Part shown: positions 5,548-28,819 of the stretch, piece by piece
Layout of the letters: the number at the start of each line of letters is the position of its first letter
Numbering within the stretch: the first letter of the stretch is position 1
From: Psychrobacter cryohalolentis K5
GTDB lineage: Bacteria > Pseudomonadota > Gammaproteobacteria > Pseudomonadales > Moraxellaceae
Reading direction: 5' to 3'
DNA length: 32,000 nt
Assembly (NCBI RefSeq): GCF_000013905.1
Contig: NC_007969.1
Span: forward strand, 1,650,001-1,682,000
Made by a program: the position numbers and the translations under genes
The notes under the pieces: model-generated
Told to the model about the DNA's origin: nothing
What the model saw: only the letters and a program-made list of their open reading frames with translations
The model's database searches: none

Positions 5548-5850
5548 AACAAGCTCTGCTACAAATGCTACAAACGTATATTATTACTCAAGATTATTTT
5601 TCCTAACTAAATTACAAGCCGCCATCACTCATCATGGCGACAAATGAATAACATTGAGCAGAAATTAATCACAATAAAACTTTGATTCAGACCCAATATG
5701 AATAGTCTCACACTCTAGTTACTTTTCGAACTTATCTTACATACTATCGACAAACCCGTCTTGTTTAAAAGCTAAACAGGTTTTGTCATCCGCGATGGCT
5801 TTCCTGTTATCGTAGGGTATATCCCAGCGGAACCATTTAAAAGGCATCAA

Positions 5851-5871
5851 AAACCGATTAATAGACCACCT
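5851..5871. repeat. Left copy of a 21-bp inverted repeat AAACCGATTAATAGACCACCT
   Basis: The reverse complement of 8481-8501 is AAACCTATTAATAGACCACTT, identical at 19/21 positions. It lies 51 bp upstream of the ATG of the decayed serine recombinase gene. Confidence 0.75.
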
Positions 5872-5917
5872 AAAATAGACTGGTGTAGTGGAACTACTTA
5901 TAACAGACTATTTTAGG
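5869..5917. promoter_or_regulatory. Extended dyad symmetry (10-bp perfect arms CCTAAAATAG / CTATTTTAGG, inner GTAG/CTAC) between the left repeat and the recombinase relic
   Basis: Arms at 5869-5878 and 5908-5917 are exact reverse complements. An inner 4-bp pair lies at 5885-5888/5894-5897. The element overlaps the last 3 nt of the 21-bp repeat and ends 5 nt before ATG 5923. Confidence 0.4.
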
Positions 5918-5922
5918 TGTTT

Positions 5923-6088
5923 ATGTTTATCAGAGCGTATCTTACTTAGAGCGTCAACCAAAGAGCAAAATGCCAAATGTGCCAAGAACAAGCTCATACA
6001 GTTTGCTACTGATCATGGCCTTAAAGCTGCTGTGTTCTATATAGAAAATGGATCAGGGGCGACACTAGTACTTACAAAACTAATATAG
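5923..6088 (+). pseudogene. Serine recombinase (resolvase/invertase) N-terminal relic, frameshifted and truncated
   Basis: ATG 5923 gives MFIRAYLT*. Removing one copy of the tandem CTTACTTA (5941-5948) restores MFIRAYLRASTKEQNAKCAKNKLIQFATDHGLKAAVFYIENGSGATL. This aligns with the N-terminus of the intact recombinase at 7738-8328 (MTVRIYVRASTKDQ...YVEHFSGTKL). The frame ends at 6088, and a weak remnant (DVILKYS) may continue to ~6140. Confidence 0.7.
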
Positions 6089-6120
6089 CTGATAACTATC
6101 ATAGCCAAAGAAGCGATGTG

Positions 6121-6144
6121 ATACTCAAATACTCAAATACTCAA
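6121..6144. repeat. Tandem repeat (ATACTCAA)x3, running into the palindrome CTCAAAAT-T-ATTTTGAG (6140-6156)
   Basis: Read directly from the sequence. It lies inside the decayed recombinase remnant. Confidence 0.6.
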
Positions 6145-6274
6145 AATTATTTTGAGCATCAGTATCCTTTGATACGGAATGTTTTAGGTATTCTGTTAGC
6201 CTAAATAGAGTCAAGAAAAATATCGATTACTTTTCAAGCTATGGTATATCAGCCGATTCTCTTATAGTCGAATC

Positions 6275-6291
6275 ATCATCGCAACGATGAT
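6275..6291 (-). terminator. Possible terminator hairpin ATCATCG-CAA-CGATGAT downstream of the 336-aa gene
   Basis: Perfect 7-bp stem with a 3-nt loop, ~85 nt past the stop at 6373 on the minus strand. Flanks are A/T-rich but there is no clean U-tract. Confidence 0.3.
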
Positions 6292-6372
6292 ATTTATAAT
6301 AGCTTAATTATCAAGGTAGACATCCTTGCATAGAGCGTGGTTTGCTTTACATATTTAAATTGAACAGCCCAA

Positions 6373-7383
6373 TTAAGGAGTATCTGGGCTATTAACAGGT
6401 TTGTAGGTTGTAAAATATCCAGTCCATACTTTGCCATAGGTAGTTTTAAATAAGACCTTTTCGGTAGGATATATAATGATCTCTTTATCTAATCTATGAT
6501 TGCATTCCTTGATGGCACATAATTTAACAAAGATGTATTTGTCATTAAAATACTCTATCTCGTAGTTCTTGGTTTTAAAATCGTTATATATTACTGCCTC
6601 TAAGGTTTTAGTGTTATATAAATCAGCAGGCAATATAAAGCTTGCACTAAATGCTTTGATTAACAGATAACAAATAAAGATGGCTATTGCTATGCCTGCT
6701 AATATTGACCAGTAAATAGGCTTTCTATATTTATCTACAAGGGTGCCCATACGGTCTTTAATATTATCCGAATTAATACCATCTTGAGCGTACTTCAATC
6801 CAATCAGCATAACAGCGTCAAGTACATAAAACATAAAGCCCGAAATAAAAAAACTTACAAGTAAAATGGTAACAATAGGGGATGTGGGGAACATACCTGC
6901 AAATAGCTCACTAATTAAATAAATAATAAGAACTAGCATTATAGGTATGACGATAAGCATCTTTTTTATGTGAAAATTTAAGTTTTTTCTAAGCTTTTTA
7001 ACAAATTCTTCATCTTCAAGCCCTTTGACTTTGTTTTCAAAAGCACTTTTTAACAAACCTATTACTGCCTTCCCCATAACAATTATCAGAACGATTAAAA
7101 ACAGTATAAGTATGCCGTCAACTGGTATTTGAGTGACAGAAAAAAACCTAATATAAGCAACATTTATACTTGATAATTCTAAGATCTGCCATAAAGCTCC
7201 TAAAAAAGATGGCAACAATAAAACAAGGCTTATGTTGTCCAGCACCCATTTAACCTGCTCCCTTAGTGTCTTCTTTGTGACCTCGGCTTTTTCATCAAGG
7301 CTATAAGTTTCTGGCACAAATAAGCCATTATCTTTTTTATGCCAGGCTGTGCCTTTAAACTCTTCTCTATTTGGGTCTGACAT
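6373..7383 (-). CDS. Orphan integral membrane protein (about 5 TM helices, soluble N- and C-terminal domains), function unknown
   Basis: 336-aa ORF, strongly AT-rich. Hydrophobic helices include ISLVLLLPSFLGALWQILEL, VDGILILFLIVLIIVMGKAVIGLL, MLIVIPIMLVLIIYLISELFAGMF, IVTILLVSFFISGFMFYVLDAVMLIGL and IYWSILAGIAIAIFICYLLIKAF. The ~85-aa C-terminal domain contains CAIKECNH. I recognise no family. Confidence 0.7.
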   Translation of the reverse strand: MSDPNREEFKGTAWHKKDNGLFVPETYSLDEKAEVTKKTLREQVKWVLDNISLVLLLPSFLGALWQILELSSINVAYIRFFSVTQIPVDGILILFLIVLIIVMGKAVIGLLKSAFENKVKGLEDEEFVKKLRKNLNFHIKKMLIVIPIMLVLIIYLISELFAGMFPTSPIVTILLVSFFISGFMFYVLDAVMLIGLKYAQDGINSDNIKDRMGTLVDKYRKPIYWSILAGIAIAIFICYLLIKAFSASFILPADLYNTKTLEAVIYNDFKTKNYEIEYFNDKYIFVKLCAIKECNHRLDKEIIIYPTEKVLFKTTYGKVWTGYFTTYKPVNSPDTP

Positions 7384-7737
7384 AGAGCACCTTAATCTCT
7401 TAAAATGAAGAAAATAAGGTTATAAGCGACCTTATGTTACTTCTCTCGTAGTAAGATTGATTCATACAAGAGGACTGGTAAAATGTTTACTATTCTAAAG
7501 TATTTCTGCCCAGTTTTTCTAGCTTTATCATTAGTGAGCTTAAAGCCTATGCGGCAAACATCCCAACCATAAGATACTGTGTTTTAACACGTCCACATAG
7601 TAAAAAAGTTGGTGTCTCTATAAATAAATATTTCTTACCTCGCGTGTAAAACCTTATATATCAGCTATTTATGAACGAAAATAAAATATAGCACTCATAA
7701 TAATAATGATGAGCTAATATTTAAAATACCTCAGCTA

Positions 7738-8328
7738 TTAGTCCTGCTTTAATACACGATAAACGGTAGCTACCCCAACACCAACCGCCTTAGCGATTTC
7801 CTCTTTTGTCATATTGGCTTGACTGTCTAATTCTCTAATACGATTGTGTTTCGTTGTATTAGGCTTCTTACCAGTGGGCTTATAGCCACTGTTAGCCAGT
7901 CCCTGCTTAATACGCTCTCTACGCTTGTCGTTATCAAGTTTTGCCATCGTTGCTAATAAGTCGATCAACATATGGTTAATCACTGTTAGGATATCACCTG
8001 TCATGCCACCACTCACCGTATACGTGGTTGGTAGATCAGCCACCACCAATCGTAAGCCTTTGTCTTTGATACGCTGCTTTAGAATTGCAAAATCATCTTG
8101 AGATAGCCGGCTTAATCTATCCACGCTTTCAACTAGTAGAATATCGTCTTTTTCAGCATCCTTTAGCAGCTTGGCTAAAGCTGGTCTATCGAGCTTCGTA
8201 CCACTGAAATGCTCAACATATTCAATATAGTTATCATCATAACTTGTACTGAAAGCTACTAACTCAGCTAATGCTCTGGTAGCGTCTTGATCCTTAGTGC
8301 TGGCTCTCACATAAATACGAACGGTCAT
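7738..8328 (-). CDS. Small serine recombinase (resolvase/invertase family)
   Basis: Catalytic N-terminus YVRASTKDQ, VESVDRLSR block and a C-terminal HTH EIAKAVGVGVATVYRVLK. The 196-aa length is typical of resolvase/Hin-type enzymes. GAGGTGG Shine-Dalgarno just upstream of the ATG. Confidence 0.9.
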   Translation of the reverse strand: MTVRIYVRASTKDQDATRALAELVAFSTSYDDNYIEYVEHFSGTKLDRPALAKLLKDAEKDDILLVESVDRLSRLSQDDFAILKQRIKDKGLRLVVADLPTTYTVSGGMTGDILTVINHMLIDLLATMAKLDNDKRRERIKQGLANSGYKPTGKKPNTTKHNRIRELDSQANMTKEEIAKAVGVGVATVYRVLKQD

Positions 8329-8351
8329 AACGCCACCTCTATTACTTAGAC

Positions 8352-8439
8352 TTAATAATTAATGTTCATTAATAATAGCAAGATATTACTATCATTTAAT
8401 AATACAAAAAAGTCTAATGATAGATAGATTATCATTTAA
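8352..8439 (-). promoter_or_regulatory. Candidate recombinase promoter plus a res-like repeat cluster
   Basis: Minus-strand TTGCTA (8381-8376), 18-nt spacer, TATTAA (8357-8352). Directly upstream are two direct copies of TATCATTTAA (8390-8399 and 8430-8439) and an inverted partner TAATGATA (8415-8422). Confidence 0.3.
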
Positions 8440-8480
8440 AGCTTTTATGCTTTAGGTATAGTGAAACGGTAGATTGTTTT

Positions 8481-8501
8481 AAGTGGTCTATTAATAGGTT
8501 T
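8481..8501. repeat. Right copy of the 21-bp inverted repeat (AAGTGGTCTATTAATAGGTTT)
   Basis: Matches 5851-5871 in inverted orientation at 19/21 positions. It lies 152 bp upstream of the intact recombinase start (8328, minus strand) and 431 bp upstream of the lipoprotein gene. It contains the 10-bp palindrome CTATTAATAG. Confidence 0.75.
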
Positions 8502-8932
8502 GAAGGGTGAAATATTTGGTTTTCTTGAGGTATACTTCTAATAATGAATATACAGATATTGATATTGATGACTATAAAGAGCAAGACATATAAGTTGAGA
8601 TAGAAAATATTGATCAGTACACGCTTCCTTATAAGTCTTACACTACTTTATACCAGTTTAGGATTTATCTATTGTCAAACTAAGAATTCTGTAAAACGGC
8701 ACAAATGAGAGGTCTAACGAACAGCATCAGCAATATTTAGCGCTGAAACGGCAAGAATCTAAAGTAGATGTAAGTGATGAACGTCCAAAACGCTGAGGTG
8801 GTTTGACTTCTTATTAGTATAAAGAATTAAAAATTAAGCGTAATATAGTTTGTGTCTAAATAATAAACAATAGGATGTAATGCAGAGATAAATCAGGTAA
8901 GAAGCACTATACAATATATGGGAGATAACTAG

Positions 8933-9907
8933 ATGAAAATATTAATAGTCATTGCTACTTTGTGTATAACTTCCTGTGCGAGCATAACCTCTTTTGAAAA
9001 TAAAAATTCGAGTCATGTTCACGGCTTGTCTTATTACATGCCTAAAAAAGATATTGTAGTTAAAGTTACTATAGAAGCTAGTAATATAACTAAGGTTGCG
9101 CTTGAAACGACACCATCATATCCTGATTTATCAAAAAGATATGTGCTAAACCACAATAAAAATATAATGGGTAAAAACCTTTCAGATATATCGATAACTG
9201 AAAGCGGATTATTAACCACTGTCACATCAAAGACTACTAGTAACGTTACAGATATATTCAGTAATCTAGCAACTAGTTATGGTAATTTTACCAAACCGCC
9301 TTTAGGGTCTGGTTTGTTTCCGCCGATCGGCTGTAATACTGATACAGAACATGTTTTTATATATAAATCGGAAGGTGAATATAACCCATGTGGTCTTTCA
9401 GTAACTATTAAAAAAGAAGGGCCGGAGAATAAAGGGGTAGAAAATACCGAGGAGGTGGAAGTATCTAGTTCTGGCATATTTTATCGACAAGACGAACCTT
9501 ATAGAGTAACGATAAATAGTGGTAGTACGATTGGGGATCTAAATTTTTCATCGATAGTATTTTCACCATCGTATTCCACAACATCATTTCTTCCAATATC
9601 TAAATCATTTTTTGCCAATAATAGCGCAGAATTTACTTTTGAAAAGGGTATTCCAACAAAATATAAGCAAGATGTAGATGGTGAAGCTTTAGCAGTAGCA
9701 AAAATTCCGTCTGCAATTATAACATCAGTATTTACTGCAGTTGGTTCAGTATATAGCAGATCTTCAACTACCAATCAGAACGAAATTTCCGCCTTAGAAC
9801 AGACGATTAAATTAGAACTCGTAAAACAGAAATATGCTGCTTGCTTAGAAGCAATTAAGAGTAAAGATACTAAGTTAGTGAGTGATTTAGGCTGTAATAG
9901 CAATTAA
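8933..9907 (+). CDS. Orphan lipoprotein, function unknown
   Basis: Signal peptide MKILIVIATLCITSC with a lipobox-like I-T-S-C, GGGAGA RBS upstream, Ser/Thr/Asn-rich mature part, AT-rich. I recognise no family. Confidence 0.7.
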   Translation: MKILIVIATLCITSCASITSFENKNSSHVHGLSYYMPKKDIVVKVTIEASNITKVALETTPSYPDLSKRYVLNHNKNIMGKNLSDISITESGLLTTVTSKTTSNVTDIFSNLATSYGNFTKPPLGSGLFPPIGCNTDTEHVFIYKSEGEYNPCGLSVTIKKEGPENKGVENTEEVEVSSSGIFYRQDEPYRVTINSGSTIGDLNFSSIVFSPSYSTTSFLPISKSFFANNSAEFTFEKGIPTKYKQDVDGEALAVAKIPSAIITSVFTAVGSVYSRSSTTNQNEISALEQTIKLELVKQKYAACLEAIKSKDTKLVSDLGCNSN

Positions 9908-10015
9908 AAATATACATATTTGGTTTAATATTATTAGTAATATGTTCTTCAAAATACGGAATATATTTCCACGAATAAATCTAGTACTCAAGATATGAAC
10001 CGCCCTGATTATATT

Positions 10016-10055
10016 AGAGGCTGATTGACGTGTGTCAAACAGCCTCTTTGCTTTA
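10016..10055 (+). terminator. Rho-independent terminator after the lipoprotein gene
   Basis: AGAGGCTGATTGAC-GTGT-GTCAAACAGCCTCT (10016-10047) forms a 14-bp stem with one mismatch, followed by TTGCTTTAT. Confidence 0.7.
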
Positions 10056-10063
10056 TAGATTAC

Positions 10064-11256
10064 TCAAAATTTCCCACCCACGCCTTTAAACTTCTCAACG
10101 AAAGCCGCAATTTTCTGCAAAACACTTTGCTTCTTGGTTAAGTACTGCGGATTCAGTGGACTCAGTTTGGGCAAAATAGCATTTAACTCTGTGCCGTTCT
10201 CACTGGCGTACTCACGCTTTAAAGAAGCGGTGATATAACGCTTAGCAGCATCTTCATTCAGGTTTTCAGCGGCAATCATGTCTTTCACTTCACGTTGCTG
10301 CTCTACCTGAGCATAGCTAAAGAAAGCATCGATAATGCTGGATTTATCAGGGATGCTATCTAAGTTGGTTTGATTGATGAAATCGACTACTAGGCTCTCT
10401 TTGGCACGGTTGCCAAGGCTTGCCCGAATCAAAGGACGTACTTCCTCAACTAGGGCAGACTTGTCCTTGGTGTTTTTATTATGCTCAAAAATTAATCCGA
10501 GTATGTAATCAAGATTAATTTCCTGTGATTTGAGCAGATCTATCTCGAAAACCACGTCGTCCCAATCAATCGAAGACTCTCCTTGCTGGTCAGCTGCTTT
10601 TTCACGACGTAACCAATCACGTAATCGTTATAGGTAGAACGGTAATCTTGTACGGTACGTTCAGCAGGCACTCTAATAGCTTGCATAGCGGCTAAGTCAT
10701 CATCGTTTAGGTAATGCTCATCTTTAAACGTCTCAACAGCGTCAGCATCGGTCACATCCAAGTCTTGCAGTGCTTTTAGGCTTGCAAACTCATCATAGTT
10801 TTGTAATATATTCTCGACACGTAAATACTCCCCGAATAACTTAGCAAAGTCCTTCTTATCAGACTCTTTCACAATCTCATCAGGGTTAGGGAAGCGTTGT
10901 TGCAGCTCTTTGACCACTTCCAAATAACCGCGTCGTGCTTTGCCTGTGGCGATATCAGTAAAACCTTCTAAGTATTCTTTATAGCTCTTCTCTAGCACCA
11001 CGTTTTTAGTGTTTCTATCACCAAACAAGGTGATGGCGTCAATGGTCGCTTTTTCTAAGTCTCGAAAGGTCACAATGTGGCCAAATGTCTTGGTAGCATC
11101 AAAACCCGTCAAGAACATGCCAACGACAACCAGTAAGTCCACTTCTTGATTAATGACGCGCCCTGCAAGGTCGCGGTAGTAATTTTGGAAGGATTTGCTG
11201 TCTACGCCATAGTTGGTTTTAAACATTGCGTTATAGTCCAATAATAGACTTTTCAT
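10064..11256 (-). pseudogene. hsdR: Decayed type I restriction enzyme R subunit (C-terminal ~400 codons only; frameshift and internal deletion)
   Basis: ORFs 10540-11256 and 10064-10555 are two pieces of one gene. The helicase block [14 protein letters not shown] is joined directly to [11 protein letters not shown], so the segment that normally holds helicase motif VI is missing. A frame change near 10620 restores ...[45 protein letters not shown]. The nuclease and most of the helicase N-terminus are absent. Confidence 0.8.
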
Positions 11257-11545
11257 AGCAAGTTAATCACTTTTCTGCAAAAAAGTATCTTTACATCAGT
11301 TTGCATATCTCGATGAGTATAATCAAAACTGTCTAAGTCAAAGATGGAATGACGCTTTGTATATCATAGAGTTCAAGCATTCTTATGATAGTATAATACC
11401 AAACAAAATTAATGATGCTGTTTTCAACATTATAAAGTGATGGCTACATCGTAAAGGTAGTCGGAATCATATCTGTATTGCATATGAAAATTAAACACAA
11501 TTCATCATACAAATTAAAAGTATCACAAATAGAGATTAAAGAAAC

Positions 11546-13135
11546 ATGGCTAAAACACCTGCGAACAAAAAAGATAAAACAGACAATGGCAATTTTGAAG
11601 AAGCCCTTTGGGATGCTGCCAACAAGCTACGAGGTAGCGTCGAATCATCAGAATATAAGCACATCGTCCTTAGCCTAATTTTCTTAAAATTCATCAGTGA
11701 TACTTTCGAGCAGCAGCGCCAAAAACTGATCGATACAGGCTATGAAAAGCATATCAACATGGTGCAAGCTTATACCAAAGATAACGTGTTCTACTTGCCA
11801 GAGGAGAGCCGTTGGAGTTTTATCCAGCAGAATGCTAAGCAAGAAGACATCGCGCTTAAAATCGACACGGCGCTCAGTACCATCGAAAAGACCAACCAAT
11901 CATTGAAAGGCGCATTGCCTGACAACTACTTCTCACGTCTAGGCTTAACGGCCAGTAAGCTTGCCGCCTTGATTGATGTGGTCAATAACATCGACACTAT
12001 CGGTAATCCAGAAGAAGACACGGTAGGGCGCGTGTACGAGTATTTCTTGGGTAAGTTTGCTGCAACTGAAGGTAAAGGCGGTGGTGAGTTCTATACGCCT
12101 AAGTCTGTGGTCAATCTGATTGCAGAAATGGTTGAGCCATATCAAGGCAAAATCTACGATCCGTGCTGCGGCTCGGGCGGTATGTTCGTCCAGTCCATCA
12201 AATTCATCGAGAGTCACCACGGCAATACCAAAGATGTGTCTATCTATGGGCAAGAGTACACCAGCACGACCTACAAGCTCGCTAAGATGAACCTTGCCAT
12301 TCGTGGTATCTCTAGCAACTTGGGTGATGTGGCTGCCGATACTTTCTTTAAAGATCAGCACGAAGACCTAAAAGCCGATTTCATCATGGCAAACCCACCT
12401 TTTAACCAAAAGGATTGGCGCGCCTCTGATGAGCTGGTCGATGACCCACGCTGGGCAGGGTATCCGACACCGCCTACGGGCAATGCCAACTATGCATGGA
12501 TATTGCACATGATATCCAAGCTCTCTGAGCATGGAACTGCTGGTTTTGTACTTGCCAATGGTTCGATGTCTACCACCACCAGTGGTGAGGGTGAGATACG
12601 CGAGCAAATCATCAAAAACGATCTGGTCGATTGTATGATTGCGCTACCGGGTCAGCTGTTTTATACCACGCAGATTCCGGTGTGTTTATGGTTTATCAGT
12701 AAAGACAAACAAGCTACGTCAGCTGATAGTAAGGCAAAGGGGTTGCGTAACCGTAGCGGTGAGACGCTGTTCATTGATGCCCGTAATATCGGTGCGATGA
12801 TTGACCGTACGCATAAAGAGTTTTCTACTGATGATATCGAAGCGATTGCCAAGACTTATCATGCATGGCGCGGTGAGAAAGAAGCGGGCGGCTATGAAGC
12901 CTACGCAGATGAAGCAGGCTATTGTAAATCCGCCAGTCTAGACGATATCAAAGCCAATGACTATGTGCTGACGCCTGGGCGTTATGTTGGGGCGGCAGCT
13001 ATCGAAGATGATGGCATTCCGTTTGAGACTAAGATGCTGGAGCTAAGCCAAACGCTATATGCACAGATGCAAGAGTCCGAAAAGCTAGATGCGACCATTC
13101 GTCAGAACTTGGAGGTATTGGGTTATGGCGAGTGA
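11546..13135 (+). CDS. hsdM: Type I restriction-modification system methyltransferase subunit HsdM (N6-adenine)
   Basis: HsdM-type N-terminal helical domain (EEALWDAANKLRGSVESSEYKHIVLSLIFLKFISD), AdoMet motif DPCCGSGGMF and catalytic NPPF (IMANPPFNQKDW). Confidence 0.95.
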   Translation: MAKTPANKKDKTDNGNFEEALWDAANKLRGSVESSEYKHIVLSLIFLKFISDTFEQQRQKLIDTGYEKHINMVQAYTKDNVFYLPEESRWSFIQQNAKQEDIALKIDTALSTIEKTNQSLKGALPDNYFSRLGLTASKLAALIDVVNNIDTIGNPEEDTVGRVYEYFLGKFAATEGKGGGEFYTPKSVVNLIAEMVEPYQGKIYDPCCGSGGMFVQSIKFIESHHGNTKDVSIYGQEYTSTTYKLAKMNLAIRGISSNLGDVAADTFFKDQHEDLKADFIMANPPFNQKDWRASDELVDDPRWAGYPTPPTGNANYAWILHMISKLSEHGTAGFVLANGSMSTTTSGEGEIREQIIKNDLVDCMIALPGQLFYTTQIPVCLWFISKDKQATSADSKAKGLRNRSGETLFIDARNIGAMIDRTHKEFSTDDIEAIAKTYHAWRGEKEAGGYEAYADEAGYCKSASLDDIKANDYVLTPGRYVGAAAIEDDGIPFETKMLELSQTLYAQMQESEKLDATIRQNLEVLGYGE

Positions 13136-14486
13136 TTGGGTAAAAACAACTCTTGGAGAAATAGTAAAGCTGGGCAATGGAATAATTCAGACAGGACCAT
13201 TTGGTAGCCAATTGCATGCCTCTGATTATGTTGATGAGGGGATTCCAGTAATTATGCCTCTTAATATTATCAATAATAAAATAGATTTATCTGGTATAGC
13301 TAGAATAACTAAAGAAGATGCAGAAAGACTATCAAAGCATTTAGTGAAAAAGAACGATATCGTATACAGTCGCCGAGGTGACGTAACTAGAAAAGCGTTG
13401 ATTACTGAACTTGAAGAAGGGATGTTTTGTGGTACTGGATGCTTACTTGTAAGACCTGGTAATAGCATAGATGCTCGTTTCTTGACCTATCACTTAAGTT
13501 CGCCTATAAATCAAGAATGGATAATCAGACACGCTGTTGGCGCTACTATGCCTAATCTTAATACAGGAATACTCAAGCGCGTTCCTTTGAACATACCAAG
13601 TTTGGATACTCAAAAAGCAATTGCCCATATTCTTGGTTCTTTAGACGACAAAATCGAGCTAAACCGCCAAATGAATGAAACGCTAGAAGCGATGGCACAG
13701 GCATTGTTTAAAAGTTGGTTTGTTGATTTTGATCCGTTGATTGATAATGCGCTGGCGGCTGGTAATGCTATTCCTGATGAATTTATCGAACGTGCTGAAC
13801 AGCGTAAGAAGATTGAGAAAAAAGACAATTCAGATATTCAGGACTTATTCCCTGATGCGTTTGAGTTTGCGGAAGAAATGGGTTGGATTCCGAAGGGGTG
13901 GGAAAATGGAATACTTGCTGATATTTGCTCGTACGGAAAAGGCAAAATAAATACATCAGAACTCACTTTAGAAAACTATGTTTCTACTGAAAATATGAAT
14001 AAAGAGAAGTCAGGAATTTCTCATGCAGCGAATATCGCGAGTACCAATCAAGTTCCAAAGTTTTCTGTAGGACAAACCTTAATCTCTAATATACGTCCAT
14101 ATTTCAAAAAAATATGGCTTGCTAGTTTCAGCGGTGGTCGGTCAAATGATGTCTTGAGCTTTCAAGCTCATAACTCTGTAGCTAATGAATATTTATTTAA
14201 TCTTCTTTATCAGGATTCCTTTTTTGACTATATGACTGCAACATCAAAAGGAACCAAGATGCCACGCGGTGATAAAGCAGCCATTATGAGCTGGTCAGTA
14301 GCAATACCTTCATCAAGATTAATGGAAGAGTTTTCGGAATTAGCAAAACCAATGTATCTCGCAAATAATCTTCGTTCATTACAGACTATTGAATTAGCCA
14401 AACTCCGCGATACCCTCTTGTCTAAGTTAATGTCAGGGGAGTTGTGTATCCCAGATGCTGCCAGACTTGTGGATGAAATAATATAG
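13125..14486 (+). CDS. hsdS: Type I restriction-modification specificity subunit HsdS (two target recognition domains)
   Basis: ATG 13125 lies 9 nt after GGAGG (13111-13115) and overlaps the hsdM stop (13133-13135). Central conserved helix LDDKIELNRQMNETLEAMAQALFKSWFVDF and distal helix ELAKLRDTLLSKLMSGEL flank two variable TRDs. The track's upstream start at 13089 is unlikely. Confidence 0.92.
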   Translation: MASDWVKTTLGEIVKLGNGIIQTGPFGSQLHASDYVDEGIPVIMPLNIINNKIDLSGIARITKEDAERLSKHLVKKNDIVYSRRGDVTRKALITELEEGMFCGTGCLLVRPGNSIDARFLTYHLSSPINQEWIIRHAVGATMPNLNTGILKRVPLNIPSLDTQKAIAHILGSLDDKIELNRQMNETLEAMAQALFKSWFVDFDPLIDNALAAGNAIPDEFIERAEQRKKIEKKDNSDIQDLFPDAFEFAEEMGWIPKGWENGILADICSYGKGKINTSELTLENYVSTENMNKEKSGISHAANIASTNQVPKFSVGQTLISNIRPYFKKIWLASFSGGRSNDVLSFQAHNSVANEYLFNLLYQDSFFDYMTATSKGTKMPRGDKAAIMSWSVAIPSSRLMEEFSELAKPMYLANNLRSLQTIELAKLRDTLLSKLMSGELCIPDAARLVDEII

Positions 14487-14538
14487 CTTTTGACAGTAAA
14501 TATTTCTCTCAAAAATATAGTAATTAATGGAGTTTAGC

Positions 14539-15408: not shown

Positions 15409-15479
15409 GGTTCACATTGCCGTAAGCGATTACTAATGTTATTGAAAGATGCTCTATTTATCTAAAAAAGGACTTATAG

Positions 15480-18662: not shown

Positions 18663-18949
18663 TTATAATTATACGGTTTTTAACAATTGAAACTTATGTC
18701 GTTTTTATACTAATGTCTAGAGTGCTATTTCAAAGCTTGGTTATCAACAATCAAGCTAATGAAAACTAAAATGATAAATAAATTTTTGAACATGGAGAAT
18801 ATTAGGGTTGATTTTTTAAAGGTGTCTGCTGACACCGACTGTTAAAACCTTCAGGATATTAATGTTTTATTTGCTGCTAGAACTACTTTTATTATGTAAT
18901 CATTTGCATATAAGTTTAAATCAGGATGATTCTGATTAAGAGGGAAATT

Positions 18950-21577: not shown

Positions 21578-21611
21578 TAATGATAGTATGTTGAAAGCTA
21601 AGTATATTCTT

Positions 21612-22735
21612 GAGATCATCCCAGATTCTGTGTAACTGCCGTTTAGATTAAATGCTTACTGATACGGTCATCAAACATAATCATAAAGCGATTAAGGGCA
21701 GACGTCCAGTTACGAATGGGCATCGACCACTTTTTAGATGCCTGCTGGGTTGCTAAGTACACCACTTTAAATGCCGCCTGATCAGATAGGAACACCTTAC
21801 GCTTATTCACCGCCGTTCGAATCACACTGTTTAGAGACTCTATCGCATTGGTGGTATAAATCGCTTTTCTGATGTCTTTAGGGTAACCAAAGAACACTTT
21901 TAAGCCTTCCCAGTTATTGCGCCAAGACTTGACCACATGTGGGTACTTATCGCCCCATGTTGCGTCGAAGGATTCAAGATTGGCCTCTGCTATCTCATGC
22001 GTATCAGCGCCATAGATGGCCTTTAAGTCAGCGGCTACGGCCTTCTTATCCGTCCAAGGCACAAACTTCATTGAATAGCGCACCATGTGCACGATACACA
22101 GCTGAACCTGAGCATTGGGGTAAACGGTATTGATGGCATCAGGAAAGCCCTTTAAACCGTCGACACAGGCGATTAGGATGTCTTGTACCCCGCGGTTTTG
22201 CAATCCAGTGAGAACCCCTAGCCAGAACTTAGCGCCCTCATTCTCTGATAGCCACATACCAAGCAGCTCTTTTTTACCGTTAAGAGCGACACCTAACGCT
22301 AAGTAAATGGCTTTGTTGATGATCTGCTTATCTTGACGGACTTTAACGACAATGCAGTCTAGGTAGACAATAGGATAAACACTGCTCAGCGGCCTATTCT
22401 GCCAAGCGGTGATGTCCTCTAAGATTTTGTCAGTGACTCTTGAAACCAAGCTGCTTGAGATATCTACATCGTAAAGCTCTTTAATGGTTTCGACGATTTC
22501 ATAGGTTTGTCTGCTTTTTCATGCTTAGGGTAGCCAAGATGTTCTTCCATCTCAGCTTCTAGGGCAGTGTCGATGAAGGATTGCATGAGCTGCTTCTGAA
22601 AGTCTTTGATGTCATCGAAGCTATTCATGCTACCAGCCATTTGCTCGGCCAGTTTTTTAAGGTCAGATTGAGTAGTCATTGCTTATTCTCCGGTTAGTGA
22701 ATTATAAGCAGTTACACACTTTTTAGAAAAGGCTC
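21612..22735 (-). mobile_element. IS256-family insertion sequence remnant (internally deleted)
   Basis: Terminal inverted repeats GAGATCATCCCAGATTCTGTGTAACTGC (21612-21639) and GCAGTTACACACTTTTTAGAAAAGGCTC (22708-22735) share the outermost GAG and an exact 11-bp TGTGTAACTGC block at their inner ends. Length is ~1.12 kb against ~1.3 kb for intact family members, as I recall. I found no clear target duplication. Confidence 0.7.
21643..22679 (-). pseudogene. IS256-family (Mutator-type) transposase, internal deletion plus frameshift
   Basis: The N-terminal piece ...LEAEMEEHLGYPKHEKA (22464-22679) joins out of frame near 22500-22510 to ...TYEIVETIKELYDVDISSSLVSRVTDKILEDITAWQNRPL... (21643-22512). 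Family members normally have about 50-70 more residues between these blocks (from memory of the consensus). Confidence 0.8.
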
Positions 22736-22781
22736 TTTTAGGTCTTTGTTAGTATCTTAAATATATTTATTCTAAACCTAT

Positions 22782-23231
22782 TTAGTCTTTATTTCTCATT
22801 TCTCTAATAATATGAGGTGCTATAATTCTTTCAGTGCGAACTGATGTCTTACTATTAACCTCTTTAATAATTGCTATTAAAGTCATTGTATTTTCAGAAA
22901 GTCTATCTTCGAGATTAGCGATCTTCTCTTTTAACCTAGCATTCTGTGAAACAAAAGCCTCTCGAGTTCTCCCATTAATATACTGCTGCTTCTCTTTATT
23001 CTTTAAATTTAAAGGACTTAATTGCTTGTCTATATAGTATGAAATTAGATTGTGACGTTCAAGCGATGTACTTTTGCTTAAAGTGCTTAAACCGCCTCTT
23101 ATTATACCTTTGCATACTAATCTCTGATGTAACGCCGAAGGGGAGATAGGCGAATTTTCGAAGCCTTCTTCTAACATGGTAAGTAATTCCTTCTCAATAG
23201 CATCATCTAATGCTCTACCACGTAATGTCAT
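22782..23231 (-). CDS. Small helical protein ending the recombinase operon (GinD-like position)
   Basis: 149 aa. Its ATG overlaps the stop of the 781-aa gene (ATGA at 23228-23231). The N-terminal region looks like a small DNA-binding module, followed by a coiled-coil-like stretch (KEKIANLEDRLSENTMTLIAIIKE). Confidence 0.7.
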   Translation of the reverse strand: MTLRGRALDDAIEKELLTMLEEGFENSPISPSALHQRLVCKGIIRGGLSTLSKSTSLERHNLISYYIDKQLSPLNLKNKEKQQYINGRTREAFVSQNARLKEKIANLEDRLSENTMTLIAIIKEVNSKTSVRTERIIAPHIIREMRNKD

Positions 23232-25573
23232 TTGCTTAACTCCTTCTGAGCAAGATGTTCAAACGCAAATAGATCGGCTAAAGTGCTAATATGCCTAGAT
23301 TCAATTTTGTTATTGGTTCCAGCATAGATATTAATTGTATTTTTATTTGAAAGAGATTTTTTAGTAACTTTTTCAAGATGTATAACGTGATCTAACTGGT
23401 TACTTACTTTTTTAAGAACCCCTTTACGCTCATGGTTTAATAAAACTATCTCTTCTGCTTCAATTAAAAGTCGCTCTAATTTGTTTTTTAAAGCAATTAT
23501 CTTATATATTTCATCAGCTCGCCCAGTGAGTGTGAAGTGGCTACAAGACTCTCCGCTTTGGCATTTCACTCCATATGGACAGCTCCATAAACCAACATCA
23601 TAAGTGCAAGATCCAAGTTTTAATGGATGTAAATTAGTATGTCTAAAAATCATTTCTTCTGCTGCAGAACTCCCTTCATCATTTTCAATATCATCAAACG
23701 CAGCTTTTAAATCTTCAAAAAGATCTTCTTGAAATGACATCTTAATAAAATTAGATTTTTCATACTTATTATCGAATGTGTGTAAATTAGCTTTAAGATT
23801 TAATTCAGTGTCTAAGTTCTGTGATAAATGAATAGAGCCTATTCTTTTAATTACTTCAATTGGTGTCAGCTCAGACAACTCATCATTTATTGTTCTATCT
23901 TCTTGAATAGTATAGGGTAAGACAGAAGCACCAGTTTTAAGGTGTTCAATAGCTAAATGCTTGTAGTGCTGATTTTGAGTAATATCTATACGGCCCATCA
24001 ACATAGCTTGTAAATGGTCGGCTATCTCAGCTATAGCAAGAAAGGTATTAATATTGTGCCTAGGAATATGACTTGTCAATCTTGTATAATCACTATTAGA
24101 TTCCTTTAAGTCGTATTTCTGGAAAATAGATACAGATTTACTAGCACCTAAAAAATCATTTATTATTTTATTGTCAAATGGTATAGGAGTCGATTTATAT
24201 ACTAATGTTCTACGAATATTGGTAGACCCGCGAGCATGAATAAACAGTAAATCTTCGTAAGGGATTTTATTATTTTTCTGATTAGTATTCCATACAACAG
24301 TACATAGATTAGTAGTCTGATTTTGATCGTCAATAAAGCTTTGAGCGACGAATTCGTTAAGATTTGCTTTCGAAAAAAACTCTTGTCTATCTTTTTTTAT
24401 AGAAATTAACCTAGCATTCCTTAACGTCTTACGTACCTTATCACGACGCCCCCCTCGGCCTCTATTATCTGATTTTGTGCCAATTATAAATCTATCTATA
24501 TCGTCTAATTCCACAAAATCAGAATTTATTAGCTCAATTTCTTTAGGTAAATAACTGGAAAATTTATTAACTCTTAAGTAAATCAGATGTTCACGTAATG
24601 GTTGTGTCAAATCTTTAACAGTATCAAAAATAGTTTCGACCAAAGGTACTGAAGAAGGCTCCAACCAGTGAATTCTTTCGCCAGCACCTTTAGCACCAAT
24701 ATATTTAATTCCTAGGAAGTAGGGGCGTAACCCTTTATTTATTAATCTGTTTTTGGTATCTAAGTCTTCAATCTCTCTTCTAATAAGGCTGTCTTTTCTT
24801 AAATTGATAGCTTCAATGGATCTAAAGCCTGTAATGATGAGTAGGATAACTAAGTTTAATAAAATTCTTTCACCACGGTCCTCACATTTATGAATCAGAT
24901 TAACTATGTTCAGAAACGTATCAATAGTAATTAATTTCTGCTTATCTTCAATATTTTTATCATCAATAAAATCTTGTTCTTTAAGGTTCTGTAGCTCCTT
25001 TGCTTTTCTTGTGTAATTAGAATTATTTGAATATGTTGTACTATTTTGGAAATTCAATGGGGTTAGACAAAAGGCATAACGATTTATTAGGTTTTGTAAA
25101 CTGACACATCTGCCTAAGGTGTCAGCTACATTAGAATCGTTATTTTTAGATGAGATGGTATACAAGTCCATCGCATGATGGATAACCTCTGTATTTAAGT
25201 AAATCGGATGCTTTCTATCTGTTAATTCTAGCAATGAGTTATACCAACGTTTTAATATTATTAGATTAGCAACTGCCACAGTCGTAGATATAGATTGCTT
25301 CTTGCGATAAATAGCAACAATGATTGATTTCATAAAATCTTTATATTCTTTACTATTAATAATTATTTTAGATTTAATGCCTTTCATTCGATCACTAATG
25401 TTGTCAAAAGTTAAAATTCCTTTGCCACTTCCTTTTAACCACCCTGTACCATATGTTCCTATATTCCAGGCATCGTTGTCCCAATTATGATGGAAATCTT
25501 TAGAGAGGTTTGATTCAAAAAAAGTTTTCTGCTCACTAATAAAAGAAGCGTAGTTCTGAAAAATATTATCCAT
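23228..25573 (-). CDS. Tyrosine recombinase, third of a trio (GinC-like), with a C-terminal Cys4 cluster
   Basis: 781 aa. GFRSIEAINLRKDSL (Arg I), SHIPRHNINTFLAIAE (H-x-x-R) and MLMGRIDITQNQHYKH (catalytic Tyr region). Cys cluster CTYDVGLWSCPYGVKCQSGESC (23543-23608). ATG lies 5 nt after the upstream stop. Confidence 0.8.
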   Translation of the reverse strand: MDNIFQNYASFISEQKTFFESNLSKDFHHNWDNDAWNIGTYGTGWLKGSGKGILTFDNISDRMKGIKSKIIINSKEYKDFMKSIIVAIYRKKQSISTTVAVANLIILKRWYNSLLELTDRKHPIYLNTEVIHHAMDLYTISSKNNDSNVADTLGRCVSLQNLINRYAFCLTPLNFQNSTTYSNNSNYTRKAKELQNLKEQDFIDDKNIEDKQKLITIDTFLNIVNLIHKCEDRGERILLNLVILLIITGFRSIEAINLRKDSLIRREIEDLDTKNRLINKGLRPYFLGIKYIGAKGAGERIHWLEPSSVPLVETIFDTVKDLTQPLREHLIYLRVNKFSSYLPKEIELINSDFVELDDIDRFIIGTKSDNRGRGGRRDKVRKTLRNARLISIKKDRQEFFSKANLNEFVAQSFIDDQNQTTNLCTVVWNTNQKNNKIPYEDLLFIHARGSTNIRRTLVYKSTPIPFDNKIINDFLGASKSVSIFQKYDLKESNSDYTRLTSHIPRHNINTFLAIAEIADHLQAMLMGRIDITQNQHYKHLAIEHLKTGASVLPYTIQEDRTINDELSELTPIEVIKRIGSIHLSQNLDTELNLKANLHTFDNKYEKSNFIKMSFQEDLFEDLKAAFDDIENDEGSSAAEEMIFRHTNLHPLKLGSCTYDVGLWSCPYGVKCQSGESCSHFTLTGRADEIYKIIALKNKLERLLIEAEEIVLLNHERKGVLKKVSNQLDHVIHLEKVTKKSLSNKNTINIYAGTNNKIESRHISTLADLFAFEHLAQKELSK

Positions 25574-25578
25574 TTATA

Positions 25579-27159
25579 TCACTCCACATTAGTTAACGTA
25601 ATAGCATTTGGATTTATTGCAATGCTTTTACATCGTGCGATAACTGATTTAATTTCTTGGCTAGTTGCTTCATATACTTGAATTAACGGATTTTTAGAGT
25701 TACCGACTGAGTCAGATAACTCTATTAAGTCAAGATGCTCTCTTTCTACACTTTGCAATACTGAATTATGATTACCTTCTTTGAAGGGGTTAAAATATAA
25801 ACACCCGTAACATGATCGAACTTCAGAGAAGGGGCATTCATCATATGAACGATTACAACCGCCTAGTTCTGAGTAAAGGGTATTGTGCACAATCCCACTA
25901 ACCTGATTACCTTGCCATTCAGATTTTGAGACAATGGCACCAGTTAATAGCATTGAGATCATATTTTGCCATACAGGGTTATTCCCTAAAGATTTTTCTC
26001 GAACTAAAGCTAGTTCTGGTGTTGCCAAAATATAATGCTTAGCGGCCACTAAAGAGTTGTGTCCCATTATATGAGCAACTTCTTCTGCACTTGCTCCTGT
26101 CATTGCCAAAGAGTGTCCTACATTGTGACGGAAATCAGAAGAGGTGTAATGAGGCTGTACCATATTATTACTTTCAATAGCTTTACGAGTTTCCAGAGGT
26201 GCGAACCTCACCATTTGTCTGTTAATAGCTTCATTAACAAATATAATGGCATTGCTACCAATATTGAACAACTGGTCTCCTTTATTTCTCTGAGTCCTAA
26301 GTTCATATTCCAACATAATTCTGGCTAACTCAGGTGGAATGGCAATTAGGATCTTATCAAGTATGAGTTTTTGCTGTTTTGCATAAGGTATCGCTATGCT
26401 GTAACGCATTAGGTTGCTTCTTTTTGATTTGGAGTCTAAATTAATGTCTCCGACGGCTAGTCTAGCTAACTGTACAGGTCGGATACCACAAACATAACAT
26501 AGGCCTAATACAGCACTGTCTTGTAATTCACCAATTGGCACTTTATCTGAGCTATTACTTGTAATACGAAAAGATAATTCATGTATGCCTTTAATTATAA
26601 GGTTTTTATCATGATCTTTTAGAACTGCATCAATATTTTGATAATTACTCCATGAGTTATTAATTGGTCTCGGTATAAACTCTAGATCTTCTAGATTATC
26701 AATATCGAACTCCGGAAAATCAATTCTACAAAGAGTTTTAATAAAGAATAAGAAAAAGTAAAACTCTCTACTGTTAGTAGTTCTCTTCATAAAATCCATA
26801 GATTTTGAATAGGATATGGAGCTTGACTTTATGTTAAACGAGAAAAATAAGGTTAAAATATTATTAAGATGACTCAGGCCTATTGGTGAGTTCTTACTTA
26901 CGAAACAAGCTAGTATATATTTTTTTAGCAAAACCTCATGTTTACCACCTATGAACTGAACCGAGGCTTTTTGACCAGAAAAAGTAAACGTCCATTTATC
27001 TTTTTTTGTATTTATATATTTATCATCAAACTCAGATGCCGTTTTAAATAATAGGGCAGTGGGTATATTTAATTTTTTAATAACTGTAATTTGCTGAGGT
27101 GTAAATGTATTTCTAGGGTCAAATTTAATATTAGTGTAAACAGTCCTATTAATAGTCAT
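25579..27159 (-). CDS. Tyrosine recombinase, second of a trio (GinB-like), with a C-terminal Cys4 cluster
   Basis: GIRPVQLARLAVGDI (Arg I), DFRHNVGHSLAMTGASAEEVAHIMGHNSLVAAKHY (H-x-x-R, H, Y). Cys cluster CNRSYDECPFSEVRSCYGC (25801-25857). Preferred start is ATG 27159, 8 nt after GAGGA, overlapping the upstream gene by 11 nt. The track's TTG 27192 is less likely. Confidence 0.8.
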   Translation of the reverse strand: MTINRTVYTNIKFDPRNTFTPQQITVIKKLNIPTALLFKTASEFDDKYINTKKDKWTFTFSGQKASVQFIGGKHEVLLKKYILACFVSKNSPIGLSHLNNILTLFFSFNIKSSSISYSKSMDFMKRTTNSREFYFFLFFIKTLCRIDFPEFDIDNLEDLEFIPRPINNSWSNYQNIDAVLKDHDKNLIIKGIHELSFRITSNSSDKVPIGELQDSAVLGLCYVCGIRPVQLARLAVGDINLDSKSKRSNLMRYSIAIPYAKQQKLILDKILIAIPPELARIMLEYELRTQRNKGDQLFNIGSNAIIFVNEAINRQMVRFAPLETRKAIESNNMVQPHYTSSDFRHNVGHSLAMTGASAEEVAHIMGHNSLVAAKHYILATPELALVREKSLGNNPVWQNMISMLLTGAIVSKSEWQGNQVSGIVHNTLYSELGGCNRSYDECPFSEVRSCYGCLYFNPFKEGNHNSVLQSVEREHLDLIELSDSVGNSKNPLIQVYEATSQEIKSVIARCKSIAINPNAITLTNVE

Positions 27160-28537
27160 TTGACGTATCCTCAAAATAAAAATCTGATTCAATTGTGTTG
27201 TTTAATGTATGGATTCTTCTTAAGTTTTCCTTATTAGCATTTTCGGAAATAAATCGTTTTGCATATAAATCTGGCATTATGCTATTAGCATGCCAACCGG
27301 CAAGCATTCGAAGCTCATCCTTAGCATCTTCCATAATTCCATTGTTAGTAAAATCAATATTGGATCGCCCTGAAAGCCTTATAATCTCATTATATTTTTT
27401 GTTGTAAGTATTTTTTAGCATTGAGTAAGCCCATGTGTGTCGAGCCGTATGAGGGGTAATCTTTTTCATACAACCTAAATATTGAGAGTCTGTGAATTGT
27501 GGAAAGTGAGTAGTAAGGGCCTCATCAATTTTTTTGAATATTAGATAAATAGCATCATATGATAAAGGCTTATAAGGCTGTCTAAGTGTCGTGAAAATAA
27601 GCTGATTATTTTCTTTAGAGTTAGGTCTTACTTTACTAATATATTGTAGTAAACATTGATAATCTGTCTTATCTATAGCTATAGACCTGATGGAGTCCTT
27701 AGTTTTAATTGAAGGTTTACGGTATCTATTATCTTTTGAATTATCAGACATCGTAGTGATAATTAAGTAAAAGCTGCTACCGTCTTTACTGGTCTTGATA
27801 GAGGAGTTCTCGAGGAGCATTAGTTCAGATACACGTAAGCCGTAATTTAATAAAATACGTACAATAACAAAGTTACGTATTTGATTTTCAAGAATTCTGA
27901 AGGGGTTTAATGGATTAATTTTTTTAGATGAACTAGGCATTATTATTTTATACAACATATTTACCATCTCATCTGTAAGGCTATCGAACCCTTGATGGCT
28001 ATTGACCTCAGTCGTAATTCTACTTTTTGAAATCTTCTTATAATTATCAGTATTAGACTTTAAGGAAACTAGAAGTCTATTTTGATGCCTTAATATTTCT
28101 TTAGGGCTTTCTTTGTAATGATAGGAATTAACGTATTTAATAGATATATACTTAATAAAGCGTGCAAATGCACGGACACGCTCTGCGTTGGTAAAAATAT
28201 TTGAAACAGAGCTATGTTCTAGCGAAATTAGATTTGGTGAGTAAATGTGGCCGCCATTAAGATAATGGAAAAAGTCGTCAAGCTCATTGATTGCAATTGA
28301 GGGGTCGTGATTTGACTGATTGAAGCTATAGCAGAATGTACTATCAAACTTTTGATGCCAAAAATTATAAAAGAATTTGATTGCTCGCAAAGTAGATTCT
28401 TGGGTAGATACTGATCTCAGATTAAGCCTGTCTATTGAATACATCAAAGGGTAGAACAGAGGCATTTTTGTCTGTTCATCGAATAAGATTAATACATTAT
28501 TGTCGTTGCCTACGGCAATCCTAAATAGTTCAAACAT
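27149..28537 (-). CDS. Tyrosine recombinase, first of a trio (GinA-like)
   Basis: 462 aa. GLRVSELMLLENSSI (Arg I), ITPHTARHTWAYSML (H-x-x-R) and LAGWHANSIMPDLYAKRF (H ... catalytic Y). It is the first gene of a four-gene co-directional operon. Confidence 0.82.
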   Translation of the reverse strand: MFELFRIAVGNDNNVLILFDEQTKMPLFYPLMYSIDRLNLRSVSTQESTLRAIKFFYNFWHQKFDSTFCYSFNQSNHDPSIAINELDDFFHYLNGGHIYSPNLISLEHSSVSNIFTNAERVRAFARFIKYISIKYVNSYHYKESPKEILRHQNRLLVSLKSNTDNYKKISKSRITTEVNSHQGFDSLTDEMVNMLYKIIMPSSSKKINPLNPFRILENQIRNFVIVRILLNYGLRVSELMLLENSSIKTSKDGSSFYLIITTMSDNSKDNRYRKPSIKTKDSIRSIAIDKTDYQCLLQYISKVRPNSKENNQLIFTTLRQPYKPLSYDAIYLIFKKIDEALTTHFPQFTDSQYLGCMKKITPHTARHTWAYSMLKNTYNKKYNEIIRLSGRSNIDFTNNGIMEDAKDELRMLAGWHANSIMPDLYAKRFISENANKENLRRIHTLNNTIESDFYFEDTSNDY

Positions 28538-28819
28538 ACCATTAACCGTATAAGCTAAATAATTATGAATAATTTAACTTATAAACATTGCGCGATTACT
28601 GGAGAACTGTTCTTTTATTTAGATCCCTTGATAAATAAGGCTGTTTGACATATTGATGAACTTATTAACTGATAGACCTAGTTTAACATAATATACATTA
28701 TGCGAAAACAAACCAACGGTTTTATAATTTGGGCACATCATATTTTGTATAATGCTATTTGCTAATCATCCCATTGATTTCTATCAGCAGTTATTTGATG
28801 TCGATATATTGGTTTCTAA

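Follow-up and report, generated by a model that had tools for sequence, protein, structure and literature searches.

The stretch analysed here, 32,000 nucleotides (nt) of the Psychrobacter cryohalolentis K5 chromosome (NC_007969.1, positions 1,650,001 to 1,682,000; hereafter the window, numbered from its first letter), carries an island of inserted DNA that ends on its right side at the chromosomal dif site. The window matches the Psychrobacter chromosome CP022043.2 at 100% identity, and the 80 related loci all come from Psychrobacter as well. The right part of this island is likely to be an element of the GInt family, also named the Tn6571 family (PMC5385486), that comprises a terminal region, a four-gene recombinase operon (ginABCD), an IS256-family insertion sequence (IS) relic, an ATPase gene and a type I restriction-modification (R-M) operon, spans at least 12554-28680, and belongs to a clade that attaches at the XerD arm of Xer sites. 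The left reach of the element is probably at about 8.8-11.5 kb. Comparison of relatives gives good support to the XerD-binding arm of a Xer site, either chromosomal dif or a dif-like plasmid site, as the predicted attachment site of the clade. An earlier note on this DNA had missed both the adjacency of the island to dif and the sharing of this target across the clade.

The dif site is present as a single copy in the window (Table 1) and its core, GCATAATGTATATTATGTTAA, is identical to that of dif in E. coli K-12 (NC_000913.3), where the site lies next to hipA. The GC skew changes sign at the site, being positive in the left flank and slightly negative in the right flank, and in 75 of 80 Psychrobacter species loci dif was found beside the genes for a 157-amino-acid (aa) protein, a 224-aa protein and mtfA. 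The start codon of ginA lies 146 nt past the conserved dif core and 144 nt past the last base of the XerD arm.

The same adjacency was observed throughout the clade. Homologues of GinC (annotated as "hypothetical protein"), with 38-54% identity, were found in E. coli, Klebsiella, Pectobacterium, Aeromonas, Acinetobacter and Psychrobacter. The relatives on plasmids are more distant, with 31-46% identity; they amounted to 117 PLSDB records and lay beside dif-like plasmid sites. Related modules were present in 267 of 5426 complete E. coli genomes (4.9%). Every relative examined, from at least seven genera, starts beside a Xer site, and the distance from dif to ginA is 126-149 nt in most of them (the set comprised the window, L041 and L115 from Psychrobacter, L119 from Acinetobacter, L107-L114 from E. 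coli and other enterics, L127 from Pectobacterium and L126 from Aeromonas) and 304 nt in Aliivibrio. The common layout (alignment A7) is dif, 15-16 variable nt, ATAAsTTCAT, TTATGTTTA...CTTCATA and ginA, and the XerC arm is host-specific in each relative. The Klebsiella plasmid Xer site reads AGTACGCATAA-CAAAGA-TTATGTTAAAT, that of the V. harveyi plasmid reads AGTTCGCATTA-TCATTA-TTATGTTAAAT and stands 146 nt from ginA, and in the A. wodanis plasmid the XerD arm is followed by 16 nt and then by TAAGTTCAT. An identical E. coli element was found after dif in three different left-flank contexts.

The point of insertion could be placed exactly in E. coli. In the empty site of strain K-12, dif is directly followed by CATGTCTGAG; in the occupied site of L112, dif is followed by 11,527 bp that end in ...GTGAACTAGCTTTGCGTTCAACATAAGTTAAAT (CATAAGTTAAAT) and only then by CATGTCTGAG. 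The insertion was therefore made directly behind the final nucleotide of the XerD arm, and dif was left whole. The E. coli relative ends in a XerD-arm-like repeat, with TAAGTTAAAT at attR against TTATGTTAAAT at attL, and a distal consensus of RTGAAC-N17-CATAAGTTAAAT closes the Klebsiella plasmid element and the Psychrobacter L050 element too. For the clade, site-specific integration is thus indicated by the exact K-12 empty site and by the same position in seven genera, and for the window by the right junction at dif. In E. coli L108-L110 and L114, a decayed and truncated second GInt was present in tandem behind the first, so arrays appear to build outwards from dif while their outer members decay.

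Further elements were found in these loci. At L050:15009-19269, a 4.3-kb element has GInt-type proximal and distal ends and no recombinase gene, and the next proximal end follows it directly; it may be a non-autonomous element that is mobilised in trans. An ISKpn21-like ISNCY element abuts the XerC arm beside the GInt in E. coli L108 and L110 (about 5391-6900) and on a Klebsiella plasmid (L138:7397-8924), which suggests that this IS also targets Xer sites. At the dif of the window, locus L025 carries a filamentous prophage (10474-16860; Phage_CRI, Zot and Coat_B genes) between the 157-aa gene and the GInt, and the dif XerC arm plus central region (window 28694-28729) is duplicated on both sides of it, an IMEX-like arrangement. 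A P4-type integrase of 421-426 aa (Arm-DNA-bind_3, Phage_int_M and PF00589) follows dif in 49 of the 80 Psychrobacter loci (L018, L023 and L028 included), mostly about 1.05-1.25 kb after the site and farther in a few, with varied cargo behind it; in 10 of these 49 loci a second type of gin operon begins only about 120 nt downstream.

The position of the island exactly at dif, together with the use of the same dif by the IMEX-like inovirus of L025, could mean that the island is of the IMEX type, integrated at dif by host XerCD with the gin genes as passengers. The clade does share residence at dif, tandem arrays and Xer-arm-like sequence with IMEX such as CTX-phi, VGJ-phi, TLC-phi and the gonococcal genetic island. 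However, IMEX use host XerCD inside the dif core and have no recombinase of their own, whereas the clade has three, inserts outside the 28-bp core, not in the central region, and leaves dif intact. Only one dif is present in the window, the far end of the relatives is a XerD-arm-like half-site with no second dif, and the gin operon is constant in all dif-adjacent elements of the clade. Moreover, all four gin genes are needed for GInt recombination in Pseudomonas (PMC5385486). Integration of the IMEX kind is considered extremely improbable here.

The GInt reading rests in addition on the operon itself, in which three recombinase-like genes and a small fourth gene, co-directional and coupled, stand at the end of the island, 146 nt from its right limit. 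The earlier note had described four co-directional minus-strand genes running from 28537 to 22782, encoding proteins of 462, about 526, 781 and 149 aa, with tight junctions, and the coordinates of the open reading frames (ORFs) confirm this: ginA and ginB overlap by 11 nt, ginB and ginC are separated by 5 nt, and ginC and ginD share a 4-nt ATGA overlap. GinB counts 526 aa from its ATG and 537 aa if an upstream TTG is used. All four ORFs are full length in comparison with their homologues.

A tyrosine-recombinase signature had been claimed for each of the three large proteins, and the overall pattern R...xxR...H/W/R...Y was indeed present in GinA, GinB and GinC; Pfam recognized the first two and not GinC. 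In the clade alignment, the invariant residues were R235, H363xxR366, W415 and Y425 for GinA, and R227, (S)xxR344, H345, H367 and Y376 for GinB. The GinC residues listed in Table 1 were unchanged across 15 homologues. Searches of Pfam, NCBIfam and PADLOC gave no match for GinC, searches of the Protein Data Bank (PDB) by sequence gave none for GinA, GinB or GinC, and profile-profile comparison of GinC with GinA and with GinB was not significant, though a weak hhalign match aligned GinC residues 504-539 with box II of GinB. When the AlphaFold model of GinC was compared with the PDB using Foldseek, the 38 best matches were all tyrosine recombinases (Cre, XerH and XerD; probability 0.99, E 2e-3). 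Note, however, that the Foldseek scores were modest, the mean pLDDT of the model was 66.6, and residues 505-572, the box II region, had values below 50. Because the model is poor exactly over these residues, the catalytic assignment of GinC holds at the level of the motif only. GinD likewise had no family match in Pfam, NCBIfam or PADLOC, and its position is conserved, a protein of 143-164 aa being encoded by the fourth gene in all relatives.

Taken with published descriptions and with a typed E. coli relative, which gives an indirect link to the reference Gin proteins, these features support a GInt-type architecture for the recombination module. Hochhauser et al. 2023 (PMC10121019) described hotspot 20 of E. 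coli, which lies at hipA-ydeT and is filled in 62 of 783 genomes, where a 12.5-kb CBASS_III island was typed as a GInt by BLAST against the Bardaji proteins at E < 1e-5; this GInt is a 44%-identical E. coli relative with the layout of the window. Like GInts, the island has a coupled four-gene operon at its end, cargo right after the fourth gene and no conjugation genes, and the E. coli and plasmid relatives show site-specific insertion with short imperfect direct repeats. For GInts, the literature names an ABC-transporter gene, ssb, the gene for RNR alpha, an HU gene and an O-acyl transferase gene as targets, whereas the target here would be the XerD arm of dif or of a plasmid Xer site. Moreover, GInts are not known on plasmids according to a 2024 preprint, unlike the present clade with its PLSDB records. 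In the literature searched, no paper joins GInts with dif as a target, and the papers on GInts and on strand-biased circularizing integrative elements (SE) name other targets; GInts with defence cargo are already published, while targeting of dif appears not to have been described, in a search that did not cover subscription journals.

The module could alternatively be an SE (intA-tfp-intB-srap; PMC10214605), whose copy-out movement would leave no empty site. As in SE, four core genes stand at one end, two or three of the proteins have the recombinase fold, a small auxiliary protein is encoded, the target is specific, the hosts are gammaproteobacterial, and there are terminal inverted motifs, here TAAGTTCAT and RTGAAC, each about 16-18 nt from its own end. 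The large third protein keeps the full R/HxxR/R/Y set like IntB, the fourth is small and coiled-coil-like, as in both families, and the PGAP labels "integrase, integrase, hypothetical, hypothetical" suit either order. However, SE combine a Tfp that lacks RHRY with a large IntB that has it, whereas GinB, the second protein here, has a clear PF00589 match and keeps R227, R344, H367 and Y376; as GinC does hold the full residue set, only half of this description fits. The known SE targets (bcp, the yaaA promoter, yjjNt and insJ) have no dif-like structure, and the E. coli relative was typed as a GInt. According to published figures, 7.5% of Escherichia replicons carry GInts and 0.3% carry SE, and the clade frequency of 267 in 5426 together with a host range that includes Pectobacterium fits the former and not the latter. 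Assignment to SE is accordingly held to be quite unlikely.

Two other types of element resemble the operon in having several tandem tyrosine recombinases. Tn554 (TnpA, TnpB and TnpC) resembles it further in its small third protein and its strong specificity for the target, but has only two recombinases. In RIT elements, the three recombinases RitA, RitB and RitC are of ordinary size, a small fourth gene is missing and the terminal inverted repeats are long; here the proteins are of 462, 526 and 781 aa, a small fourth gene is present, and no long terminal inverted repeats surround the operon. Neither Tn554 nor RIT elements are known to target dif.

The cargo next to the operon also bears on the GInt reading. 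A sewage-metagenome contig (L146) carries window positions 12554-28704 at 99.994% identity, including the R-M genes, the ATPase gene, the IS relic, the gin operon and the proximal end. This match ends inside the dif XerC arm, where L146 has a different XerC arm, followed by DNA of 57% GC with a chemoreceptor gene. In L099, a related proximal end is followed by a deletion into hsdR and then by hsdS, hsdM and a resolvase gene, and in L167 a diverged R-M system, a large gene and a homologue of ginD are arranged as they are in the window. These data support that the R-M system and the ATPase travel with the gin operon.

Several observations weigh against this reading. No distal terminus or flanking direct repeat of the clade's type was found in 5548-28537 under several relaxations of the motif; relaxed scans of the window for the distal motif gave 36 matches against about 58 in shuffled sequence, which is not above chance. 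Many Psychrobacter P4-type integrase islands have the same end of dif, 16 nt and ATAAGTTCAT, and the motif is therefore not exclusive to gin operons. L146 could represent a different host, or it could be an assembly chimera, being a single contig, seen in two samples. At L147:9509-12575, the R-M and ATPase genes (99.6% identical) are present, the match breaks 143 nt into the IS256 relic, and GntR and MadL/MadM genes follow; therefore, the cargo block also exists without a gin operon. The island is fixed in many samples and in two complete genomes of the lineage, which suits immobility as well as recent spread. Finally, published GinC is described as lacking a catalytic motif, whereas the GinC here keeps R, HxxR, R and Y.

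The earlier note had taken the whole of 5548-28819 for a GInt serving as the vehicle of a defence island, and had proposed comparison with relatives as a way to find imperfect direct repeats at its ends and to define an empty site. Other strains, with flanks about 97% identical, lose their match at 5908-5939 (left side) and 28641-28682 (right side), so the inserted DNA covers about 5910-28680; the insert was thus confirmed with limits slightly inside those first given. Both limits could be placed in this way, while look-ups with the flanking proteins found no simple empty site within the species. The imperfect direct repeats of 10-17 nt that flank GInts were found in E. coli, on the Klebsiella plasmid and in Psychrobacter L050, and not in the window. 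GInts are described as having a short 3' end that is rich in AT and poorly conserved. Distal ends in the relatives are non-coding and share the consensus given above; nothing equivalent was recognisable in the window. A scan for the attL layout returned two matches, the true attL and 8777-8809, against 0.38 expected per window. The second match, on the same strand, is a weak candidate for a tandem junction, for which no comparative support was found.

A reading of the entire interval as a single intact GInt, in which 17 kb of cargo follow the terminal operon and cryptic imperfect repeats flank the whole, nevertheless has points in its favour. Dif and a conserved flank enclose the variable DNA, the left flank motif AGTCTGTT resembles AGACTGTT, which directly follows dif in island-free Psychrobacter species, and downstream of the same flank the sister strain L001 carries another gin-like operon that has the same orientation. 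However, what stands at the left junction is one half of a palindromic serine-recombinase site (I3; 5867-5887 and 5899-5919), not a XerD-arm-like repeat. A serine-invertase module occupies the left 2.6 kb (Table 1), and it occurs alone at the flank in L004 and L010; in L004 the resolvase gene is flipped and lies directly beside the DUF3817 flank. The inverted repeat of this module (I1) is 25 nt long and 92% complementary, or about 61 nt when compared with the flank of other strains, and window 8475-8535 aligns in inverted orientation with the left flank of those strains. This module is separate from the GInt and unrelated to it. In addition, a clade-type terminus is found nowhere in the interval, and the hsdR fragments and the IS relic are signs of a composite history. 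The data therefore do not show a single 23-kb unit, the existence of which is judged unlikely; the earlier proposal is partly supported, in that the recombination module, the GInt architecture and the linkage of the R-M/ATPase cargo stand.

The locus is hypervariable, other strains carrying other gin-like operons, P4-type integrase islands, an inovirus or ordinary-looking genes. An ancestral adjacency of the two flanks was considered and rejected, as in none of the 80 Psychrobacter species loci was a DUF3817 gene found within 8 kb of dif. This variability among strains and species, the fixation of the island in its lineage and the failure to find a distal end could also be explained by plasticity of the terminus (deletions, inversions and IS activity) that stranded an inactive recombinase operon, with no functional element present. 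In this case, one would not expect four full-length gin ORFs, a conserved terminal region or an identical copy at a different dif (L146), and random plasticity could not produce the clade-wide spacing to dif. This explanation is regarded as very unlikely. A GInt-family element at the right, next to DNA of other origin at the left, is the reading retained here.

Table 1. Positions of the island's features, its limits and the dif site in the window
Feature	Positions	Strand	Details
Chromosomal dif	28681-28708	minus	reads TTTTCGCATAA-TGTATA-TTATGTTAAAC (full TTTTCGCATAATGTATATTATGTTAAAC); XerD arm abuts element
ginA-proximal terminal region	28538-28680	minus	15-nt variable spacer, ATAAGTTCAT (28656-28665), then TTATGTTTA...TTCATAA just upstream of ginA
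ginA	27149-28537	minus	462-aa tyrosine recombinase; Pfam PF00589 E 3e-11
ginB	25579-27159	minus	526-aa tyrosine recombinase with Cys-rich C-terminal extension; PF00589 E 2e-10, NF041502 partial match
ginC	23228-25573	minus	781-aa recombinase-fold protein; R251, H502xxR505, R528 and Y537 kept
ginD	22782-23231	minus	149-aa small accessory protein; fourth gene of operon
IS256-family (Transposase_mut) relic	21612-22736	minus	transposase split into 71-aa and 268-aa ORFs; PF00872 E 7e-79, profile positions 137-377 only
SMC-type ATPase, LmuB/Mad3-like	18926-21577	plus	883 aa; PADLOC LmuB E 1e-20, mad3 E 1e-18; Pfam SMC_N, AAA_13, AAA_21, AAA_23
Complete type I R-M operon	11546-18662	plus	REase_I 1238 bits, MTase_I E 5e-190, Specificity_I E 7e-122 (Pfam, PADLOC)
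hsdM	11546-13135	plus	
hsdS	13089-14486	plus	
ORF of unknown function inside R-M operon	14527-15408	plus	
hsdR	15480-18662	plus	
EcoR124-type hsdR relic	10064-11256	minus	C-terminal fragments in two ORFs; PF12008 and PF22679 partial matches
324-aa ORF	8933-9907	plus	no match in Pfam, NCBIfam or PADLOC; missing from L099
Weak candidate tandem junction	8777-8809	minus	AAGTCAAAC, 18 nt, GTTCAT; only other attL-layout match in window
Serine-invertase module	5851-8535		inverted repeats 5851-5875 and 8477-8501 (to 8535 against other strains)
Intact serine recombinase (resolvase/invertase)	7738-8328		196 aa; PF00239 and HTH_7; inside invertase module
336-aa ORF	6373-7383		no family matches; inside invertase module
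Frameshifted serine-recombinase relic (N-terminus)	5922 to about 6090		inside invertase module
Left limit of strain-variable DNA	5909-5910		L001, L003, L004 and L006-L008 diverge just past ...TATAACAGAC

Among the accessory genes, the IS relic, the ATPase, the type I R-M system, the hsdR relic and the serine recombinases (one intact, one frameshifted) were as the earlier note had listed them; the "envelope proteins" of that list, the 336-aa and 324-aa ORFs, found no backing in the family searches. Its "stacked defence cargo" was overstated, as the interval holds one complete type I R-M system and one orphan ATPase, the LmuB/Mad3-like protein being encoded without a partner gene, and the remainder consists of relics and ORFs of unknown function. 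The two systems were considered together as MADS and this was rejected, the mad2, mad3 and mad5 matches being far weaker than those to the type I R-M models. The R-M genes form a discrete cassette, to which metagenome relatives align only over about 11500-18700, and a metagenome scan with HsdM for the left end of the element in other contexts returned the R-M cassette alone. In L099, hsdM is joined to the resolvase region. The IS256 relic is 86-93% identical to an IS copy in L003 and is also present in the element copy of L146.

The GC content is 0.33 in the gin operon and in the ATPase gene, 0.44 in hsdR, 0.47 in hsdM, 0.42 in the flanks and 0.37 in the whole insert. The value of about 50% that the earlier note had given for hsdR belongs to hsdM, which peaks at 0.49 in 1-kb windows. 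Scans for tRNA genes and Rfam families found nothing.

A hairpin at 10018-10046 (GAGGCTGATTGAC-GTGT-GTCAAACAGCCTC) lies between the 324-aa ORF and the hsdR relic. Positions 10033-10045, which gave a 13-nt inverted match to 28638-28650 with blastn-short (E 0.08), were tried as a terminus and rejected, as they form an arm of this terminator-like hairpin. The hairpin is probably a terminator, and its match to the proximal end of the GInt is probably due to chance.

At the left flank, an AG(A/T)CTGTT motif is repeated at 5860-5909, and it is also found just after dif in the island-free Psychrobacter loci L029, L042, L074 and L081; the motif could be a site for a recombinase, or it could belong natively to the flank of dif. 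The operon of L001 (10840-20363), downstream of the DUF3817 flank, is quite different from that of the window; its four recombinase-operon genes encode 411, 959, 702 and 168 aa in the same orientation, with a thymidylate synthase gene and a resolvase gene as cargo.

One interpretation of the comparative data is that the element would move through a circular form, at the junction of which the far end (...CATAAGTTAAAT in relatives) would mimic the XerD arm. Recombination by the Gin proteins would then take place between this junction and TTATGTTAAAT, on the outer edge of dif, catalysis being proposed by analogy with Bardaji 2017 and the crossover being placed there by inference. The element would come to lie immediately behind an intact dif, at a distance of about 146 nt to ginA, and its far end would be marked by an imperfect direct repeat of 10 nt. 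Newcomers would insert between dif and the older residents, so that arrays would grow and their dif-distal members would decay. The comparisons themselves show where the element lies, its association with Xer sites across the clade, the exact insertion point in E. coli and the link between cargo and gin operon; catalysis by the Gin proteins, the crossover position and mobility at the present day are presumed. In the genome studied here, the gin operon and the dif-proximal end are intact, and the dif-distal terminus is not recognisable. It is a tentative possibility that the clade has made the XerD arm of Xer sites its near-universal attachment site, that its distal end imitates this arm, and that it may recruit dif-bound host XerD to the synapse.

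If this possibility holds, one family of elements could enter the chromosomes of many genera as well as plasmid multimer-resolution sites, and the chromosome terminus would become a self-renewing landing pad for defence islands. Attachment of the clade at the XerD arm would explain the E. coli defence hotspot at hipA-ydeT and would offer a route by which defence and other cargo is shuttled between plasmids and chromosomes and between genera. Members of the clade occur in about 5% of the complete E. coli genomes, in the 117 plasmid records and also in Acinetobacter, Aeromonas, Pectobacterium, Psychrobacter and Vibrio. The clade would make it practicable to study how a mobile element can use an essential site, conserved universally, as its target and yet not destroy it, and it raises the question of whether the Gin recombinases work with XerD and FtsK at the terminus or compete with them.

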